Shown here: piece by piece, positions 15,326-22,923 of the stretch | Position numbering within the stretch: position 1 is the stretch's first letter | Layout of the letters: each line of letters begins with the position of its first letter | Source: Candidatus Hermodarchaeota archaeon | Lineage (GTDB): Archaea > Asgardarchaeota > Hermodarchaeia > Hermodarchaeales > Hermodarchaeaceae | Reading direction: 5' to 3' | Assembly: GCA_016840065.1 (NCBI GenBank) | Contig: JAEOTB010000091.1 | Coordinates: 32,001 to 96,000 of the forward strand | DNA length: 64,000 bases | Notes under the pieces: model-generated | What the model was told of the DNA's origin: nothing | The model's input: the letters and a program-made list of their open reading frames with translations, nothing else | Database searches by the model: none | Translations under genes and position numbers: made by a program

Positions 15326-17041
15326 TTATGTAACGAGCCAATAGACGCAAGCTCCAAAGCGTGTATACACTTTAGCGACTGATTTGGCGGCGTCAAGAGG
15401 GTCGGAACACTCCAAGGAATACAACTGCTCTGGATAATCACGAAGGAAGTAAGTTTCCATCATTTCGCTCGTTAGGAGAAATACCGAATGATTTTGAGTT
15501 CTAGAATCCTCTCGGATCAGTAGAGGATTAGAAAGATATGTTTCTTGAAGAGGAAGGAAGAGAAACCTATTACTGTCGGCTGGGAACATACCTTGCATCA
15601 TTATCATCAAACGAGTATCAGTAACCACAAATGATTGAGTGTCTGTCATATCTCGGAGCCATAACCCTCCTCCAATTTCAGATTGGTTCATCCCCTCTGG
15701 ATACCATCCCCCTACAGGCTGATATAGGTTATAGATTCCACCAATAGAGAATGTTAGAAGCAAGAGTGTCATAGTAGAGAGGACAAATAGGTTCTGAGAA
15801 CGCCCCCATTTTTGTTGTGTCTCAACTAGTTTGTACAATGCAACAACAGACATGATAGTAACCGGGATAAGTAAAAAGGCGAAATGTCGGTGACCAATGA
15901 AAACCCAGATACTAGAGCGACCAAGAGAAGCATCGATGAGCGTGAGTAAGCCTGTAATCCCGAATGACGCTCCGATGACCAGAAAAGAGAAGGCGACGAG
16001 AAGTCCAGAGATATTCGACTTGCCAATATCCCAAGGCATTGTTCGTAATACCGAAATCGAAAGGGTGAGAAGACACGAAAGGAGACCAAACTTGAAGATA
16101 ATCCAGAGTACGGGGCGATCATACGGATAGAGAAATATCGTGGAGAAGAAGAAACCTATACCTGCGATACAGCCCAAAGTGAAAAATAGTTTTCCAGCCC
16201 AATTTCTTCTAAATAGTTTCAGGACTCGCCATGCCCAATCCCTCGTGACGTATAAAACAGAAACTGAGGTTGCTAAAACTACTAGACTAAGCAGAATAAT
16301 CGGAAAATAGGCTAGGAACTGAGAGTTAGCTGTTGGATTCACTAGTAATAGTAGAGCAAGTGGCACTGCGATTAAAAATACCGAAAGAGGAATGCCTATC
16401 CTATTTATCGACGAATCCTGACTCAAAACTGACCCGACTAAGAGAGCTAAAACAAAAAGAACTGCGAAGTATGTTGTTAAATGATGAATTAGTGGAAGAC
16501 TGCAAACAGCTACTAGGAGAATTATTAACCATTCCTTGCGGGCTCCAGTCCGTTTCACAATAGATAATGCAGCCAAGAAGGTTAGACTTAGAAACACCAT
16601 TGCTAGATGTTGGGGGATCACCGAGTTTGTTTGAGCTGCTACATCAACATCAAGGGAGAAAATGAACATTGCAATGACGCTTGGCCATCCTTTGCCAAGG
16701 AGGTTTCTGAAAAAAGCGAAGAAAGCAGTAAACCCAGCAAGGACAAGTATTGCTACATACAACCTAAATGTATCAATTAGTGGTAAGCCGAGGAAGATGT
16801 GTATGAGGTAAGCTAATGTGTGGAGGAACGGCATGTACAGATTCGAGTAGTACTCACCATAGAAGGGAATACGGTTATTGGTTATGATTACTTCCGTGGC
16901 ACCCATATGAATCCATGAATCATAGCTGTATGAGCCAGGGAAGAGGAGTAACGGGATGATGCGGGGAATTACCCATATCGCGAAGACGCTAGCAATTGCC
17001 AAGCGGTACATCCCGAGTTTCATAGAACCAGATATCGACAT
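15326..17041 (-). CDS. Polytopic membrane protein, GT-C-like
   Basis: YDSWIH loop after first TM, HHLT motif, many TM segments, soluble C-terminal domain. Confidence 0.55.
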   Translation of the reverse strand: MSISGSMKLGMYRLAIASVFAIWVIPRIIPLLLFPGSYSYDSWIHMGATEVIITNNRIPFYGEYYSNLYMPFLHTLAYLIHIFLGLPLIDTFRLYVAILVLAGFTAFFAFFRNLLGKGWPSVIAMFIFSLDVDVAAQTNSVIPQHLAMVFLSLTFLAALSIVKRTGARKEWLIILLVAVCSLPLIHHLTTYFAVLFVLALLVGSVLSQDSSINRIGIPLSVFLIAVPLALLLLVNPTANSQFLAYFPIILLSLVVLATSVSVLYVTRDWAWRVLKLFRRNWAGKLFFTLGCIAGIGFFFSTIFLYPYDRPVLWIIFKFGLLSCLLTLSISVLRTMPWDIGKSNISGLLVAFSFLVIGASFGITGLLTLIDASLGRSSIWVFIGHRHFAFLLIPVTIMSVVALYKLVETQQKWGRSQNLFVLSTMTLLLLTFSIGGIYNLYQPVGGWYPEGMNQSEIGGGLWLRDMTDTQSFVVTDTRLMIMMQGMFPADSNRFLFLPLQETYLSNPLLIREDSRTQNHSVFLLTSEMMETYFLRDYPEQLYSLECSDPLDAAKSVAKVYTRFGACVYWLVT

Positions 17042-17142: not shown

Positions 17143-18480
17143 TTGAGTGCATGGCAGGTAATGGTGTTTATTGGAACTCGTCCCGAGATTGTCAAAATGG
17201 CGCCAGTTATCAAGGCATTGGAGACTGACAATCGATTCCAACTAGTTATTGTTGATTCAGGTCAACATTACGACGAACAGCTTAGTTCTGTCTTCTTTGA
17301 AACTTTTCACCTTCCACGAGCTCAATATAGTTTGGACGTGGGGTCGGGAACTCATGCAAGCCAAACAGGAAAGATAATGATAGCTGCAGAGAAAATCATC
17401 ACGGAAACCAAGCCTGATATTATTTTAGTCCAAGGAGATACAAACACTGTTTTGGCAACTGCATTAGCAGCCGTAAAAGCTCAAATTCCATTTGGACACG
17501 TTGAAGCAGGGCTCAGAAGCTTTGATCGAACTATGCCAGAGGAGATTAATCGTATTGTTGCTGATCAATGTTCTGAACTTCATTTCGCTCCAACGCCACT
17601 AGCAGCAAACAATCTTCTTTTCGAAGGATTTGATCCTAGGACGATTCATATTACTGGCAATACTAACATCGATGCGATTCTTCAGTTCAAAGAAATCAGT
17701 TCGAGACAATCAAAAATAATTGACAGGCTAGATTTAGAAGGGACACCGTTTGCAGTCGTCACTATTCACCGCCCTGCAACTGTGGATTATGAAGATGCAT
17801 TAACCTCAACTGTATCTGCATTCCTTAACCTCACTGAATTAAGACTGGTTCTTCCTGTACACCCACGAACCCGAAAAGCGTTAGAACGATTTGGTTTATT
17901 TGAACAACTGGAATCTGCTTCTCATATAATCCTCACTGAACCTCTCGGGTTCATTGATTTCCTTCGCTTGATGTCCGAGGCACGGATTATACTGACTGAT
18001 TCAGGTGGTATACAAGAAGAAGCCTTCACCCTTGGCAAGCCCTGTATTACTTTGCGTGTAAATACAGAGCGACCAGAAAGTCTTCATCTTGGAGCTAACT
18101 TCCTTGTTGGTCGCTCAACGGATCGCATCGTGGAAGTTACTCGTAGTGTTTTAGCAGATTCGACACTAAGCGATCGCATCAACCGTCTCCCTAATCCTTT
18201 TGGGGATGGAAACGCTAGCGAACGAATAGTGAAAGGTGTTGTCCGATTCTGTAGGGAAGGCCGCGCTTTTGTAAAGCCTCATTTATTTGAAACAGGTATG
18301 CGTAATCGAACACTACAGCACGTAAGCAGGGAGTTACAGGGGATGACCATCCTTGAAGCTGAACAGAAAATAGGCGGTAAGATTATGTTGCTCTTCGACG
18401 AGAGTGGTTGTGCAGTTTTTCCAGAAACTGCTAGAAAATTGGCTCTTGGACAACATTTCATTTTAGCTATAGAGAAATAG
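17143..18480 (+). CDS. wecB: UDP-GlcNAc 2-epimerase with C-terminal TrkA_C-like extension
   Basis: GTRPE, GQHY, QGDT, HVEAGLRS, TDSGGIQEEA and NPFGDG motifs, then about 75 extra aa. Confidence 0.9.
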   Translation: MSAWQVMVFIGTRPEIVKMAPVIKALETDNRFQLVIVDSGQHYDEQLSSVFFETFHLPRAQYSLDVGSGTHASQTGKIMIAAEKIITETKPDIILVQGDTNTVLATALAAVKAQIPFGHVEAGLRSFDRTMPEEINRIVADQCSELHFAPTPLAANNLLFEGFDPRTIHITGNTNIDAILQFKEISSRQSKIIDRLDLEGTPFAVVTIHRPATVDYEDALTSTVSAFLNLTELRLVLPVHPRTRKALERFGLFEQLESASHIILTEPLGFIDFLRLMSEARIILTDSGGIQEEAFTLGKPCITLRVNTERPESLHLGANFLVGRSTDRIVEVTRSVLADSTLSDRINRLPNPFGDGNASERIVKGVVRFCREGRAFVKPHLFETGMRNRTLQHVSRELQGMTILEAEQKIGGKIMLLFDESGCAVFPETARKLALGQHFILAIEK

Positions 18481-18635: not shown

Positions 18636-19166
18636 TTACACACAACCTTGGCTTTTCATGTAATCAAGGATTTTTTGCGCACATTCTTGTGGTGTCTCTT
18701 GCTCAGTATCCACCACAACTTCAGGATTTAATGGATCTTCATAGGGGTCATCAATACCAGTACATTGTTTAACTTCCCCAGCCAGAGCTCGTTTGTATAG
18801 ACCCTTAGGGTCTCGACGTATACACTCTTCGATAGAGGCCTTGACGAAGACTTCGATGAATCGGTCGAGTTGAGACCGTGCATAAGCTCGTGTTACCCTG
18901 TATGGAGAGATAAGACTAACAACTACATTGACACCATTTCGCATCAGCAATTTACTTAGATATATTACACGGCGGTTATGCAGGTTGCGCTCCTCAGCGC
19001 TGAAACCTAGTTTGGGACTTAACTCCTGGCGCACCTCGTCGCCGTCAAGTACTTCGATTTTTTCTCTTCTCTTGCGAAGCTCTGTTTCTATGAGCCGAGC
19101 GATGGTTGTTTTCCCACAACCAGGAAGTCCTGTTAGCCAAACTACACAGCCTAGTCCCATTTTCAT
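18636..19166 (-). CDS. cysC: Adenylyl-sulfate kinase
   Basis: WLTGLPGCGKTT, LDGD, RDPKGLY and TGIDDPYE motifs. Confidence 0.95.
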   Translation of the reverse strand: MKMGLGCVVWLTGLPGCGKTTIARLIETELRKRREKIEVLDGDEVRQELSPKLGFSAEERNLHNRRVIYLSKLLMRNGVNVVVSLISPYRVTRAYARSQLDRFIEVFVKASIEECIRRDPKGLYKRALAGEVKQCTGIDDPYEDPLNPEVVVDTEQETPQECAQKILDYMKSQGCV

Positions 19167-20548
19167 TTCACCTTGATGATTTTTCCTTCCATGCCTTTTG
19201 GCACTTTCAGACCCATAGCATGCAGGATAGTTGGTGCTACATCATAGAGCGTTATATTCTGAATTATACCTCCTACCTTATGTTTAGGGTCCCAGAGAAT
19301 GAATATACCATCCCAGTCATGCACTGCATCATCGGGTCCTGTGTCATTCTCTGAGAGATGGAGGCAGTTGTGTCCGAGTGTGCCAGTTGAGCGATAAGAT
19401 AGGTCATCGAAATAAACCATTAAATCAGGAGGATTCCCCTTTACAACTCCTCCATATAACTCGGCAGGTATGTAAACTTTAGTATCCAGAGCCTCTCCAT
19501 TAACCCCTCGAATTTGTCGCAGTTTCTCCGATACCTCGCTGCGGATTCTCTCGAAATCCTTCGAATCTATAACACCTGTTTCTTCGCGCCCTTTCACATT
19601 GAAAAAAACGCGTGCGTAATACCCACCCCAACCCCATGCAGTGGTATTCTCCCAGTCAATGTCAGCCTCATCGAGACGTACCTGTTTTATGGGGTGTGCC
19701 TTAAGTTTGAGGTATCCTTCTCGCACAAGCCACTCGTTGATACAGATAACACCTTTCATAGGCTTGGCACCATGATCTGATACAACAATGACTACCGTGT
19801 CATCATCAATAATCTCCAAAAGCTCACCAATCTTGCCATCAAGATACTGATAATAATCTGAAAATAGGGATTCATACTTGCTGCCAGGCTCGTGAAGATG
19901 GTGCGTTTTATCGTAATATTTCCAAAAACCATGATGAAGCCTATCAGGACCCATCTCAACAAACATGAAAAAGTCCCAAGGCTTACTCTTCATGAGATAC
20001 GAGACTACTTTGAACCGGTTTTCGGTCAGAGCGTACAAATCCTTTAGTAAACGATCCTTGTCATCTGTACGAAACCCCTTTACATCCAGCAAATACCCGC
20101 CCAATTTGTCTATCTCTTCCTTTAAACTAGGGGGTGATGTATATTGACTTTTTATAGAAGGAGCAAGAAAACCTGAAATTGATAAACCTGTTACACATGG
20201 CGGCGGGTAGGAGGGAGGAACACCCACAATGCAGACATACTTGCCTCTCTTTGAGAGGATATCCCAAACCGCAAGCTCTTTGACATCATATGAGGTAGCG
20301 ATGTTGAACTCTGTATAGGAATTGCCACTTCGATGTCGGAAGCCGTAGATACCTAGCTGACCAGGAGACTGCCCAGTACTCATTACAACCCAGGCCGGAC
20401 ATGTGATTGGAGGATTTGAACTACGCATCCGTCCATAGATTCCTTCTTCACGCAGCCTCGTAAGATTCGGCATCACATTGGCTAGTTGGTCGAAGACCAA
20501 TTCTGGAGCTGCACAGTCCAAACCAATCACTAATACTTTACGAGGCAC
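19163..20548 (-). CDS. Alkaline-phosphatase-superfamily enzyme (type I phosphodiesterase/nucleotide pyrophosphatase-like)
   Basis: GLD, PPITCPAW (Thr nucleophile), DRLHH, SDHG and DAVH metal ligands. Confidence 0.85.
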   Translation of the reverse strand: MPRKVLVIGLDCAAPELVFDQLANVMPNLTRLREEGIYGRMRSSNPPITCPAWVVMSTGQSPGQLGIYGFRHRSGNSYTEFNIATSYDVKELAVWDILSKRGKYVCIVGVPPSYPPPCVTGLSISGFLAPSIKSQYTSPPSLKEEIDKLGGYLLDVKGFRTDDKDRLLKDLYALTENRFKVVSYLMKSKPWDFFMFVEMGPDRLHHGFWKYYDKTHHLHEPGSKYESLFSDYYQYLDGKIGELLEIIDDDTVVIVVSDHGAKPMKGVICINEWLVREGYLKLKAHPIKQVRLDEADIDWENTTAWGWGGYYARVFFNVKGREETGVIDSKDFERIRSEVSEKLRQIRGVNGEALDTKVYIPAELYGGVVKGNPPDLMVYFDDLSYRSTGTLGHNCLHLSENDTGPDDAVHDWDGIFILWDPKHKVGGIIQNITLYDVAPTILHAMGLKVPKGMEGKIIKVK

Positions 20549-20563
20549 TGCAACTTCACCAAA

Positions 20564-21703
20564 TCATGAAACGAAAGGCTCAGGGTGACTTGCAATCATT
20601 TCTGCAACCTCCCGTCTCATAAGAGACTCAGGTGGATTTCGACCTTCTTGGAAATATCTGCGAATCTCCGTTCCACTGAAATCAATATGATTACTTTTGG
20701 GATGAGGGCAAGTCTTCTCGTTAGCGATACTCCTACATTTTGTACAATAGAAGAATGATTTGAAGAGTAGCGGGATAATCTCAAGATCGGGAAACTTATC
20801 GAAGATTTCCTGTGCTGCAAGGGGATGATAGAATTTTCCAACACCCGCATGATCCCTTCCCACAATGAAATGAGTGCACCCAAAATTTTTACGCATTATA
20901 GCGTGATGAATGGCTTCACGGGGTCCAGCGTAATACATTGGTGAGCGGAGAATACTGAGGACACAATTTTCTCGGAGGAAATATGTTTTCATTAAAGTGC
21001 GGTATGCATCAAGGATAACTTCATCGCGGAAATCACCTTGTTTCTTTGGTCCTATTAGAGGGTTGATAAAAATCCCGTCAACAAAGGTTAATGCTGTTTT
21101 TTTAACATATTCATGACCGAGATGTGGTGGATTTCTAGTTTGAAATGCTACTATTGTCCTCCACCTTTTTGTTTTAAACAAAATCCTAGTATCTAATGGA
21201 TACAGCGTTACTTCTTCGAAATTCAAAGGCGGGGAGGAGATTACAGAGAGTTTCCCACCTAGTAGGGTCTTCTCCATGGTATGAGTCCTAGCTACACCAG
21301 GGTGCTCCGAGTCCTGTGTGCCAAACACTTGCTGAGAGAAATACCTTTTGTCAAGCGTGAATTTGTCTTCAACAAGTAGAACAGCAACTGGAGCACCATC
21401 TAGACACAGAACTACTTCGTCGTCAACCGAGAAATCGTTATCTTGATTGACATCGAATACGATCGGTATGGTCCACGGAACATCAGAGAGCAAACGCATG
21501 TCGTCTAACACATTGTTGGTCTCGTCTTCTGTCATGAACCCAGTTAAAGGGCTGAGAACGCCATGCCCGATATTCTGAACTATATCAGTCAATGTTGAGG
21601 ATATGTCAATGGTCTGATATTCGCTGATTTGTACCTTCAGTTTGTCAGAATCTTTGTCGGATAGCAACCGAGAAACAAGGTGACCGCCATGTGCTTGGTT
21701 CAT
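20564..21703 (-). CDS. sat: Sulfate adenylyltransferase
   Basis: AFQTRNPPHLGH, AGPREAIHHA and GRDHAG motifs. Confidence 0.95.
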   Translation of the reverse strand: MNQAHGGHLVSRLLSDKDSDKLKVQISEYQTIDISSTLTDIVQNIGHGVLSPLTGFMTEDETNNVLDDMRLLSDVPWTIPIVFDVNQDNDFSVDDEVVLCLDGAPVAVLLVEDKFTLDKRYFSQQVFGTQDSEHPGVARTHTMEKTLLGGKLSVISSPPLNFEEVTLYPLDTRILFKTKRWRTIVAFQTRNPPHLGHEYVKKTALTFVDGIFINPLIGPKKQGDFRDEVILDAYRTLMKTYFLRENCVLSILRSPMYYAGPREAIHHAIMRKNFGCTHFIVGRDHAGVGKFYHPLAAQEIFDKFPDLEIIPLLFKSFFYCTKCRSIANEKTCPHPKSNHIDFSGTEIRRYFQEGRNPPESLMRREVAEMIASHPEPFVS

Positions 21704-21716
21704 TCTCTTCCCCCAA

Positions 21717-21950
21717 TCAATCCAAATATCCTAGGGCCCGAAGGCGCGCTTTAATGCGTTTTTCATCTTCGGAAGAGAAGGCCTTTTCAGTAGATTGCTG
21801 GGATTCTTCTGCGAAGATTTCTCGAAGAACATAAGTAACGTAATCGGAAACAGAGGAGAAGCCTGTGTCTTCGATACGCGCTTTGATTTTTCCAAAAAGG
21901 GTCTTTGGGATAGAGACGGTCGTGTATTTGCGTTTGGATTTAGGACTCAT
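21717..21950 (-). CDS. CopG/ribbon-helix-helix regulator with C-terminal RLRALGY tail
   Basis: YTTVSIP strand plus two helices (SVSDYVTYVLRE); ends EDEKRIKARLRALGYLD. Confidence 0.85.
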   Translation of the reverse strand: MSPKSKRKYTTVSIPKTLFGKIKARIEDTGFSSVSDYVTYVLREIFAEESQQSTEKAFSSEDEKRIKARLRALGYLD

Positions 21951-21986: not shown

Positions 21987-22022
21987 TAATGCCAGGGCAT
22001 TAAATTTAATGTTATGACATTA
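21987..22022. promoter_or_regulatory. Twin palindromic operator candidate TAATG-N6-CATTA x2 over the promoter of the RHH-sat operon
   Basis: TAATGCCAGGGCATTA (21987-22002), AATT, TAATGTTATGACATTA (22007-22022); begins 37 bp upstream of the RHH start. Confidence 0.7.
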
Positions 22023-22125
22023 CACTCTTTCAAATGAGTTCTGCTTCCATCAACGATTATACTAACCAGAAAAAGTCTATCAACCACTGTTCTGGTTGAT
22101 TTTGGAGATAAAACATGAAGGCGAT

Positions 22126-22923
22126 TTAGAACCAGGAGAATAGAGCTATTGCCTTAATGAGAGTTAATGCTCCTAGAAAGATTGTGGCTACACCGATTAT
22201 CCTAGACTGTTGTCTTCCTTCGGTACGCTTGACAAAATAACTACCTAGAGGTGCAGCGATAACTGCACCCCCAAAAAGGAAAATTGTATAGAAAATAAAA
22301 TAAACATCGAAAATCAATCGACCTAGTAAAATGTATAATGTCACGGCAGTTATACTCACTACTGCTTTAGAGACTGTTGTACAGCCAATCGATTGTGAAG
22401 CTTCTCTTCCTGAGAGAATCTGGCCCCCCGCCACTAGTGGAGTGTAACCCCCACCAGTCAAACCCTTATTAATGGCAGCAACCCCGCCAAGAACAACGAT
22501 TTTTCTCCACGAGAAGGCTATTTTGAATTCAACAATAACTAGTATACCCAGCAATAGAACTGTAAGCCCAACATAGGCTTGGATAAGAATAGGAGTAATA
22601 CTAACAAGCGTGTAGAATAATAGAATAGCAGTTACTGCCCCTATCATCCCTGAGATAGAAAGCGCAATCACCATTTTTGAATCGTCGGAGAAGGAGAAAT
22701 TTACATTGCCATGAACTTGAAAGGCAATGGCAGTAGCAATTGATGCACCAATTGAGGAAAATAGAATTGCTGGCACCACTTCTATTACTGGTAAGTTAAG
22801 TAGAATTAATACAGGGGTCAAGAATGTGCCATATCCAAATCCAAATACGGCATCAAGAAATTCAGCTACAAACCCGAGAATGAATAGTAACAGTAGTAGA
22901 TTAAGACCTCCGTCCATTACCAT
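22126..22923 (-). CDS. TauE/SafE-family (TSUP) permease
   Basis: FLDAVFGFGYGTFLTP and GLTGGGYTP repeats, about 8 TM. Confidence 0.85.
   Translation of the reverse strand: MVMDGGLNLLLLLFILGFVAEFLDAVFGFGYGTFLTPVLILLNLPVIEVVPAILFSSIGASIATAIAFQVHGNVNFSFSDDSKMVIALSISGMIGAVTAILLFYTLVSITPILIQAYVGLTVLLLGILVIVEFKIAFSWRKIVVLGGVAAINKGLTGGGYTPLVAGGQILSGREASQSIGCTTVSKAVVSITAVTLYILLGRLIFDVYFIFYTIFLFGGAVIAAPLGSYFVKRTEGRQQSRIIGVATIFLGALTLIKAIALFSWF

Follow-up and report, generated by a model that had tools for sequence, protein, structure and literature searches.

Sulfate-activation clusters and related regulatory systems

A 'sulfate assimilation' cluster with the gene order copG-sat-DHH pApase-NPP-cysC(-tauE) has been described in Pyrococcus yayanosii (PYCH_17520-17560) and Thermococcus onnurineus (TON_1704-1707) (PMC8268124; PMC4463584). 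In the description of the cluster and the sulfur-assimilation passage of these papers, copG figures merely as a putative regulator, and neither its tail nor an operator is mentioned; for TON_1705 of T. onnurineus, pyrophosphatase activity is reported (PMC4463584, citing Lee 2009). Of the species genomes searched, at least 497 contain the copG-sat-NPP-cysC cluster; the 80 that were listed are nearly all archaeal. A literature search for RHH proteins with ATP sulfurylase in archaea returned no paper, and we know of no study of the regulator of this cluster.

Small RHH repressors such as Mnt, Arc and omega act on tandem or inverted repeats over their own promoters; Mnt possesses a C-terminal oligomerisation helix, and to our knowledge the tails of these repressors are common to no enzyme family. 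Type II antitoxins of the RHH class (ParD, RelB, CcdA, TacA and KacA type) combine an N-terminal RHH dimer with a C-terminal partner-binding helix or peptide, which modulates operator binding. In PutA of E. coli, an RHH operator-binding domain is coupled to the proline-catabolic enzyme of the regulated pathway, and the state of the enzyme sets transcription. Within sulfur assimilation, the C-terminal tail of CysE enters the active site of the pathway enzyme CysK in the cysteine synthase complex and competes with substrate, while in Bacillus subtilis it is the enzyme CysK that controls the repressor CymR.

Gene layout of the operon

We analysed a stretch of 64,000 nucleotides from a Candidatus Hermodarchaeota archaeon (hereafter the window), in which a gene for a 77-aa RHH protein opens an operon whose gene content and order match the archaeal copG-sat-pApase-NPP-cysC cluster in orthologous loci. 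Its genes, with the permease next to it, are as follows.

21717..21950, minus strand: gene of the RHH (CopG-like) regulator (77 aa), which heads the operon, taken from the list of open reading frames
20564..21703, minus strand: sat, ATP sulfurylase (PF01747, E 3.5e-84; PF14306; NF003166, 469 bits)
19163..20548, minus strand: AlkP-superfamily NPP-type enzyme, tail-less, 461 aa (PF01663, E 2.8e-48)
18636..19166, minus strand: cysC, APS kinase (PF01583, E 4e-55; TIGR00455, 207.9 bits), overlapping the AlkP stop by 4 nt
22126..22923, minus strand: TauE/SafE-type anion permease (PF01925, E 5.3e-20), same strand, upstream of the RHH gene

The RHH, sat, AlkP and cysC genes follow one another directly on the same strand, separated by 13 nt and then 15 nt and, at the last junction, overlapping by 4 nt; sat (PF01747) and cysC (PF01583) flank the AlkP gene. 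The window shares with the clusters of P. yayanosii and T. onnurineus the order of a copG-like gene first, then sat, an NPP-type AlkP and cysC, with TauE nearby; it differs from them in having no DHH pApase and in the position of TauE, which lies upstream of the RHH gene, whereas it follows cysC in Ferroglobus, Thermococcus and one further relative (L008). Among the 20 loci that contain AlkP and extend for at least 5 kb downstream, 12 likewise lack the DHH gene, and a search with a Ferroglobus query found none in the window's own genome, which is only 84% complete.

The AlkP enzyme is an orthologue of TON_1705 and PYCH_17550. It has D11, T49, D202, H206, D258, H259, D406 and H410, all of them invariant or almost invariant; from knowledge of the family, we take them to be the threonine nucleophile (Thr49) and the two-metal ligand set. 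No PF00884 sulfatase was found in the genome (84% complete). The idea that AlkP has to be the sole sulfotransferase of the operon was weakened by a canonical sulfotransferase candidate elsewhere in the same genome, on contig C76.

RHH protein and its candidate operator

The 77-aa protein is most likely an autoregulatory RHH repressor of the archaeal sulfate-activation (PAPS) operon. Its N-terminal part has the arrangement expected of the fold:

21810..21929, minus strand: RHH DNA-binding core, residues 8-47 (K.TTVSIP strand plus two helices)

In the AF2 model, residues 8-15 are extended and are followed by helices 16-26 and 34-53. The exhaustive VIA search returned RHH proteins as 45 of the 50 structural neighbours listed; the core superposes on NikR and on the RHH domain of PutA (2rbf, 44 residues) with an rmsd of 1.4 Å over 44-46 residues, at Z scores of 4-5.5 that are modest for a protein so small. 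Foldseek gave no significant match. In sequence-based searches, no Pfam RHH model scored over threshold, a NikR subfamily match was weak (E 0.001; 19 bits against a cut-off of 119), and phmmer against PDB sequences returned a chance match only. We retrieved 989 homologues, which carry CopG or Arc/MetJ-type names in the databases; in 57 aligned homologues from many archaeal phyla, the core residues T10, T11, S13, I14, P15, Y40, V41, L42, R43 and E44 are invariant. The best whole-length structural neighbours (Z 4.9-5.5, identity 11-17%) are RHH type II antitoxins. This likeness is an architectural analogy only, since no toxin gene accompanies the window RHH (its neighbours are sat, AlkP, cysC and TauE) and its predicted partner is a metabolic enzyme of the operon.

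Upstream of the gene, two palindromic sites of the form TAAT[GT]-N6-[CA]ATTA were located:

22007..22022: distal operator candidate, TAATGTCATAACATTA (read on the minus strand)
21987..22002: proximal operator candidate, TAATGCCCTGGCATTA (read on the minus strand), with its centre 20 bp away from that of the distal site

The palindromes of this region were at first read as CATTAAATTTAATG and TTAATGCC-ct-GGCATTAA; comparison with relatives replaced this reading by two TAATG-N6-CATTA sites. Of 80 regions upstream of RHH homologues, 63 contain the motif (0.85 expected), and 91 of the 112 sites in 978 kb of loci fall within 130 nt upstream of an RHH gene. Eight sites occur in the window's own genome, the pair in the window being the only tandem; this tandem layout is common to the closest relatives (L006-L010), and in 40 of the 63 motif-bearing regions there is only one strict site. 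Judged by this sequence conservation, the pair at 21987-22022 is likely the RHH operator, and the AT-rich TTAAATTT between the two sites is possibly a TATA box. A dimer of RHH dimers would then bind two sites overlapping its own promoter, much as the small repressors Mnt, Arc and omega do.

C-terminal tail

In the C-terminal part of the RHH protein, an acidic linker leads into an amphipathic helix, which is closed by an LGY cap:

21720..21782, minus strand: C-terminal tail, residues 57-77, AFSSEDEKRIKARLRALGYLD (helix 60-73 plus GY cap)

Both open reading frames bore out the earlier note's starting observation, namely that the RHH protein ends in RLRALGYLD (FSSEDEKRIKARLRALGYLD) while the AlkP enzyme stops at MEGKIIKVK (VPKGMEGKIIKVK) and has no such module in cis. 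Residues F58, E63, K67 and R69-Y75 of the tail are invariant in the 57 aligned homologues, and the helix is modelled with a pLDDT of 86-88.

The repressor tail is the sequence module that is found at the C-termini of NPP-type AlkP enzymes in this family. The same note had stated that many sulfatase and phosphodiesterase-family proteins end in such a helix, and among 150 diverged AlkP relatives (family representatives at 50% identity) 25 indeed have the pattern [FY]S.E[DE]E..[VI]..RL..LGY at the C-terminus. An HMM built from these 25 cis tails and run on the 12,404 six-frame ORFs of the window's own genome had the RHH protein as its sole match (E 2.4e-7; next E 1.7), and no second protein with this tail was found in that genome (84% complete). 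In five other genomes, a tail profile matched only small RHH proteins and AlkP enzymes. A search with RHH residues 38-77 against longer proteins returned nothing at E up to 10, the query being too short for a library of 5.8 billion sequences.

LGY-like ends are also present on CysC and CysD-like proteins, which is compatible with a more general role or with a helix-capping motif. Chance likeness through a generic helix C-cap (L..LGY) was rejected by the HMM for the RHH and AlkP tails, though not for the CysC ends.

Distribution of the tail across genomes

Close homologues of the window AlkP have a length of about 460 aa throughout, and none of the 120 closest is tailed; nor is any of the 30 best orthologues in a sample from across the phylum, and a tailed RHH gene is present nearby wherever the flank is long enough. 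A second, independent AlkP subfamily (L133, L138) repeats this arrangement, a tail-less enzyme adjoining a tailed RHH-like gene, and its nearest relatives have the tail in cis. Three stand-alone tailed AlkPs have neither RHH nor sat nearby, and there are many tail-less AlkP paralogues that have no tailed neighbour.

Within one class, an AlkP of this family occurs in 31 genomes, every one of which encodes the RHH protein as well, and in none of the 26 RHH-less genomes; conversely, 22 of the 53 RHH-bearing genomes (at least 90% complete) are without an AlkP of this family at E 1e-10. The tail is equally conserved in 42 loci without AlkP (32 of which end exactly in RLRALGYLD) and in 25 loci with it, and so it must also serve another partner or the self-association of the repressor. 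As to the suggestion that the helix 'now' sits on the regulator, the module is indeed confined to the repressor in the window's own genome; it has not moved there recently, however, being ancient and without variation across at least 497 species genomes.

Predicted docking and other possible roles of the tail

The earlier note had also proposed that the tail could dock on AlkP, and co-folding of the two proteins agreed with this: the RHH tail was placed in the catalytic cleft of AlkP with an ipSAE of 0.69 (runs 0.69, 0.78, 0.69), compared with 0.37 for the best control, in which AlkP was swapped for an unrelated protein, and 0.02 for partner-replaced controls. The value of 0.37 suggests a certain stickiness of the helix. 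The runs had at least 85% of contacts in common, with a partner pLDDT of at least 64. Of 80 solved complexes in the calibration, 58 attained the mark that the pair passed, and of 110 mismatched pairs, 2 did so; these counts apply only roughly here (own alignments). By sequence, no close solved structure exists, so the pass does not reflect sequence-based memory.

The predicted interface comprises RHH residues 57-77 and AlkP residues 49-50, 69-71, 83-87, 127-134, 155-160, 307-310 and 401-406, and so takes in T49 and D406; in the model, the C-terminal GYLD extends to the region of the T49 nucleophile. The predicted groove is highly conserved within operon-type AlkP. When four AlkP groups were compared (operon type, cis-tailed, RHH-adjacent and tail-free), groove residues did not separate users of the tail from non-users. 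The tail may plausibly act as a peptide for docking, gating or sensing.

In the reading that we favour, and to which we give about an even chance, the autoregulatory repressor docks its tail in the AlkP cleft in the manner of a pseudosubstrate, close to the metal ligands and to Thr49, the nucleophile. Occupancy of the enzyme would thereby act on the availability of the repressor and vice versa, through gating of AlkP, sequestration of the repressor, or both, and the tail would in addition serve another partner or repressor self-association. Computation shows that the operator is conserved, that the tail is identical with the cis tails and how the genes are arranged; docking is a prediction, and from it we infer the regulatory consequence and its direction. 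Transcription may be controlled by the state of the enzyme or its substrate. Among known systems, CysE-CysK and CymR-CysK also belong to sulfur assimilation, but involve unrelated folds and enzymes, and the tail is there on the enzyme CysE and here on the repressor, its placement in an active site being a prediction in the window system. PutA offers a covalent fusion, whereas coupling in the window would rely on a docking peptide between separate proteins. If docking is real, this would be a clear archaeal example in which a repressor uses a peptide in the active site to sense what state an enzyme encoded in the same operon is in, a parallel to CysE-CysK and CymR-CysK of bacterial sulfur metabolism, and it would help to settle the role of the enigmatic NPP-type enzyme in PAPS synthesis and glycan sulfation. 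Three features lend themselves to testing: the operator, which is conserved, the tail peptide with its defined 21 residues and the cleft predicted to receive it.

Another explanation, which we consider unlikely, is that the tail is a self-association helix joining two RHH dimers for cooperative binding to the tandem operators, AlkP being irrelevant and the module on AlkPs serving their own oligomerisation. The 20-bp spacing of the tandem sites in the window and its relatives, the invariance of the tail with or without AlkP and the score of the helix against even an unrelated protein are all consistent with it. However, it leaves unexplained why, in the genomes searched, the module occurs outside RHH proteins only on AlkPs, and why tail-less AlkPs adjoin tailed RHH genes in two separate subfamilies; the single strict operator site of many lineages also speaks against it.

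It is rather improbable that the tail binds a pathway protein of wider occurrence, such as sat or CysD, or else CysC or the small sulfotransferase, with the AlkP cleft being one of several receptors or a false one. The closest link of the RHH gene is with the activating enzyme: sat lies directly downstream of it in 63 of 77 related loci, which bears out what the earlier note said of similar RHH proteins next to sat elsewhere among archaea, and in other loci CysD-like or CysDN genes take the place of sat. Retention of the tail in AlkP-free operons and the similar ends of CysC and CysD-like proteins point the same way. Nevertheless, sat and CysD have unrelated folds, so that a common receptor site is not obvious, and the sole co-fold run favours AlkP.

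Sulfation of Tyr75 is more doubtful still. Here the invariant tyrosine, which lies in an acidic context and whose GYLD end comes near the T49 nucleophile in the model, would be a covalent acceptor sulfated by the PAPS-using enzyme of the operon (AlkP here, a small sulfotransferase elsewhere), and would act as a PAPS sensor or as a relay of sulfate to glycan sulfation. The operon sits inside a glycan-synthesis cluster, and AlkP-fold enzymes of Halobacterium work as glycan sulfotransferases (PMC11980604). In RHH loci with at least 5 kb downstream, AlkP (20 of 62) and a small canonical sulfotransferase (31 of 62) are never found together, as if mutually exclusive at one operon slot, although this exclusivity is confounded by phylogeny. 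The orthologue TON_1705 is, however, reported as a pyrophosphatase (PMC4463584), and the genome has its canonical sulfotransferase candidate elsewhere. If true, modification of the repressor itself would give it a direct reading of the PAPS pool, or the repressor might even pass sulfate to glycan-sulfating enzymes, so that archaea would have a switch or relay based on the sulfation of a protein tyrosine.

The cis-or-trans distribution of the tail and its modelled docking at the cleft would suit a split enzyme whose active site the tail completes, as the earlier note had envisaged. That the tail supplies something which AlkP lacks for catalysis is very improbable, since the tail-less AlkP has a full, conserved set of metal ligands together with its Thr nucleophile, the orthologue TON_1705 is reported to be active alone (PMC4463584, citing Lee 2009), many tail-less paralogues have no tailed neighbour, and a long disordered linker precedes the tail in the cis forms. 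In the model of a tailed AlkP homologue, the tail helix has a pLDDT of 90 and the linker before it lies below 50.

The sulfate-activation operon and its regulator

The 77-aa ribbon-helix-helix (RHH, CopG-like) protein is encoded in a run of genes which reads, in transcription order:

22126-22923, minus strand: TauE-type permease, followed by a spacer of 175 nt
21717-21950, minus strand: RHH ORF, 77 aa
20564-21703, minus strand: sat
19163-20548, minus strand: AlkP-superfamily enzyme, NPP type
18636-19166, minus strand: cysC

The intergenic gaps from RHH to sat and from sat to AlkP are 13 and 15 nt, and AlkP and cysC overlap by 4 nt. ORF translation reproduced exactly the C-terminal ends given in the earlier note, FSSEDEKRIKARLRALGYLD for the RHH protein and VPKGMEGKIIKVK for the AlkP enzyme. 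The gene order copG-sat-DHH pApase-NPP-cysC(-tauE) is described in PMC8268124 for Pyrococcus yayanosii, Ferroglobus placidus, Aciduliprofundum, Aeropyrum and Ignicoccus, and copG is termed there a putative transcription factor; the order was confirmed here in Ferroglobus and Thermococcus. The gene at the AlkP position in Thermococcus onnurineus, TON_1705, is listed as a pyrophosphatase in PMC4463584, which cites Lee 2009. The operon has thus been described before, whereas its regulator is not known to have been studied.

The 77-aa protein is a conserved RHH regulator. At least 989 homologues (60-94% identity) are spread over many archaeal phyla, including Asgard lineages, Thermoplasmatota, Bathyarchaeia, Thermococci, Archaeoglobi, Hadarchaeota, DPANN and Korarchaeota. 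Judged from its nearest relatives, the source organism belongs with Asgard archaea of the Hermodarchaeota kind. Alignment of 57 sequences revealed two invariant blocks, a strand-helix-helix core (T10, T11, S13, I14, P15 ... Y40-E44) and a tail (F58, E63, K67, R69-Y75). None of the Pfam RHH models reached threshold with this protein. Its AlphaFold model has helices at 16-26, 34-53 and 60-73, and nearly all neighbours from an exhaustive structural search with the model were RHH proteins; among these, the RHH domain of PutA and NikR superpose with an rmsd of 1.4 Å. The best full-length structural neighbours (Z 4-5.5) were RHH antitoxins, which possess their own partner-binding C-terminal helices.

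Comparison of 80 upstream regions revealed a common 16-bp inverted repeat, TAAT[GT]-N6-[CA]ATTA, present in 63 of them, whereas shuffled sequences give 0.85 on average and never more than 4. Of the 112 sites in 978 kb of fetched loci, 91 fall in the 130 nt that precede the RHH gene. Two tandem operator candidates spaced by 20 bp (22007-22022 and 21987-22002) flank an AT-rich stretch in the window, which could be a TATA box; they form the sole tandem pair among eight sites in the whole genome. Such a pattern marks RHH as a putative autorepressor. At 22070-22100, approximately 30 nt past the TauE stop codon, there is a perfect inverted repeat of 8 bp, ATCAACCA-N6-TGGTTGAT, with a T5 run behind it. 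Transcription of TauE probably terminates here, in which case the RHH operon would have its own promoter.

A C-terminal module shared by the regulator and AlkP enzymes

According to the earlier note, many sulfatase and phosphodiesterase-family proteins continue into a linker and a terminal E..RLxxLGY helix, and this is correct for the AlkP family. Of 150 representatives (50% identity level), which share 34-51% identity with the window enzyme, 25 terminate in a linker and [FY]S.E[DE]E..[VI]..RL..LGY plus 0-2 residues. The tail is absent from all 120 closest homologues (≥54% identity, approximately 460 aa). A 22-column HMM built from the 25 enzyme tails only was run against all 12,404 ORFs of the genome that contains the window, and the RHH protein was the sole significant match (E 2.4e-7; next best 1.7), so the two tails are one module and more than a shared helix cap. 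In five other genomes, the module profile matched small RHH proteins and AlkP enzymes only. The proposal that the tail had moved onto the regulator does not describe its history, since the tail is ancient and invariant within the RHH family.

The 30 best AlkP orthologues from 300 Asgard genomes are all tail-less, with a tailed RHH gene nearby wherever the fetched flank extends far enough. Near three stand-alone tailed AlkPs, RHH, sat and cysC were not found. A second, independent case of the pattern is provided by two genomes of one Asgard genus, where a tail-less long-form AlkP, whose nearest relatives carry the tail in cis, is immediately preceded by a divergent RHH-like gene with the end KKRLE(S/N)LGYM; sat was not found near this locus. 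Among 79 genomes (≥90% complete) of the class around a Thermoplasmatales genome, RHH was present in 31/31 with an AlkP of this family and AlkP in 0/26 without RHH (Fisher p 6e-8, overstated because relatives are not independent).

Predicted binding and possible roles of the tail

When RHH residues 44-77 (44-row alignment) were co-folded with the AlkP enzyme (81 rows), ipSAE values were 0.69, 0.78 and 0.69. The two partner-replaced controls each gave 0.02, and the enzyme-replaced control gave 0.37. The runs share at least 85% of contacts, with partner pLDDT of at least 64; the calibration mark, met by 58/80 solved complexes and 2/110 mismatched pairs, is rough here since own alignments were used. 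This co-prediction supports binding of the tail to AlkP at the level of a model. The predicted interface comprises RHH residues 57-77 and AlkP residues 49-50 (Thr nucleophile), 69-71, 83-87, 127-134, 155-160, 307-310 and 401-406 (metal-ligand region). No solved structure of a close homologue was found; where a tailed homologue was modelled, its tail helix reached pLDDT 90 and the preceding linker stayed <50.

What survives, on these models, is a docking or pseudosubstrate peptide that could occupy the AlkP cleft: stand-alone enzymes would carry it in cis, while in PAPS operons the repressor would supply it in trans. That the tail is a missing part completing the active site is unlikely, because AlkP keeps its full catalytic set and an orthologue is reported to be active alone. 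An exclusive link to AlkP is disfavoured too. Conservation of the tail is no lower where AlkP is missing (RLRALGYLD end in 32/42 loci without and 12/25 with it), AlkP of this family is absent from 22/53 RHH-bearing near-complete genomes, and LGY-like ends occur on some CysC and CysD-like proteins too. Since the tail is conserved without AlkP, it must also serve another role, either self-association or binding of another partner. A more daring idea, which we regard as a long shot, is that the PAPS-using enzyme of the operon, of whatever kind, sulfates Tyr75 of RHH.

Gene content of RHH loci

The gene for the activating enzyme is the closest associate of RHH: at 63 of 77 loci sat is the next gene, and at some others a CysD-like protein or CysDN pair takes its place. 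Where at least 5 kb downstream was available (62 loci), 20 hold AlkP, 31 a small canonical sulfotransferase and none both. This sulfotransferase is short (184-194 aa in loci L006-L085, e.g. L024:10302-10856, L080:10987-11571, L047:12011-12592), and in Thermoplasmatota the slot separating DHH from cysC can be filled by either enzyme. Mutual exclusivity and the shared slot hint that AlkP may use PAPS, rather than only hydrolysing pyrophosphate. P0160, a 689-aa metagenomic AlkP homologue, is a natural fusion of tail-less AlkP (59% identical) with APS kinase, which ties AlkP functionally to the PAPS pathway.

Additional observations

In Bathyarchaeia and one Altiarchaeales genome, RHH is followed, in place of sat, by a CysD-like PAPS_reduct protein with its own end ...MMQKLRALGYM. 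A second, divergent family of small RHH-like proteins, sometimes encoded beside cysC in operons already holding the main RHH, has the same acidic linker and a ...RLRGLGYL tail. The loci are:

L013:8215-9060, L017:8065-9036, L055:8194-9036, L057:2986-3834, L081:1165-1848: CysD-like protein
L096:649-930, L097:699-944, L025:4344-4559, L072:7453-7680, L107:4054-4266: divergent RHH-like family

Many archaeal APS kinases end ...EKLKELGYI (e.g. L025:10792-11325, L034:10799-11335), and two matched the AlkP-tail HMM (E 8e-6 and 4e-4); the window cysC end, KILDYMKSQGCV, gave no match to it. At L086:904-3781, a cis-tailed AlkP has as neighbours a TRAP transporter, a GntR regulator and a beta-propeller protein that weakly matches arylsulfotransferases; sat and cysC were not found nearby. 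At L011:90-1055, the gene directly after RHH is a 219-aa ORF with weak sulfotransferase similarity, and NeuA/NeuB-type nonulosonic-acid genes come next; sat was not found after RHH on the side seen, and on the other side the contig breaks off 90 nt before RHH. AlkP-orthologue matches in four related genomes (G378-G381, class of G301, and G282) each contain one in-frame TGA, which may reflect stop-codon read-through into the next gene, or recoding.

The operon sits within a glycan-synthesis region (GT4 glycosyltransferases, flippase, methyl-/acetyltransferases, deacetylase, UDP-GlcNAc 2-epimerase). Between a GT4 gene and the epimerase lies a 571-aa multi-pass membrane protein (15326-17041, minus strand) with no Pfam match, which may act as a polymerase or resemble an oligosaccharyl-transferase in function. 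The Pfam domain of the 445-aa epimerase (17143-18480, plus strand) stops at residue 364, with approximately 80 C-terminal residues outside it. Elsewhere in the same genome, a 240-aa ORF (contig C76:7482-7889, minus strand) matched Sulfotransfer_1 (E 4.1e-10) and is a candidate PAPS consumer of the organism.
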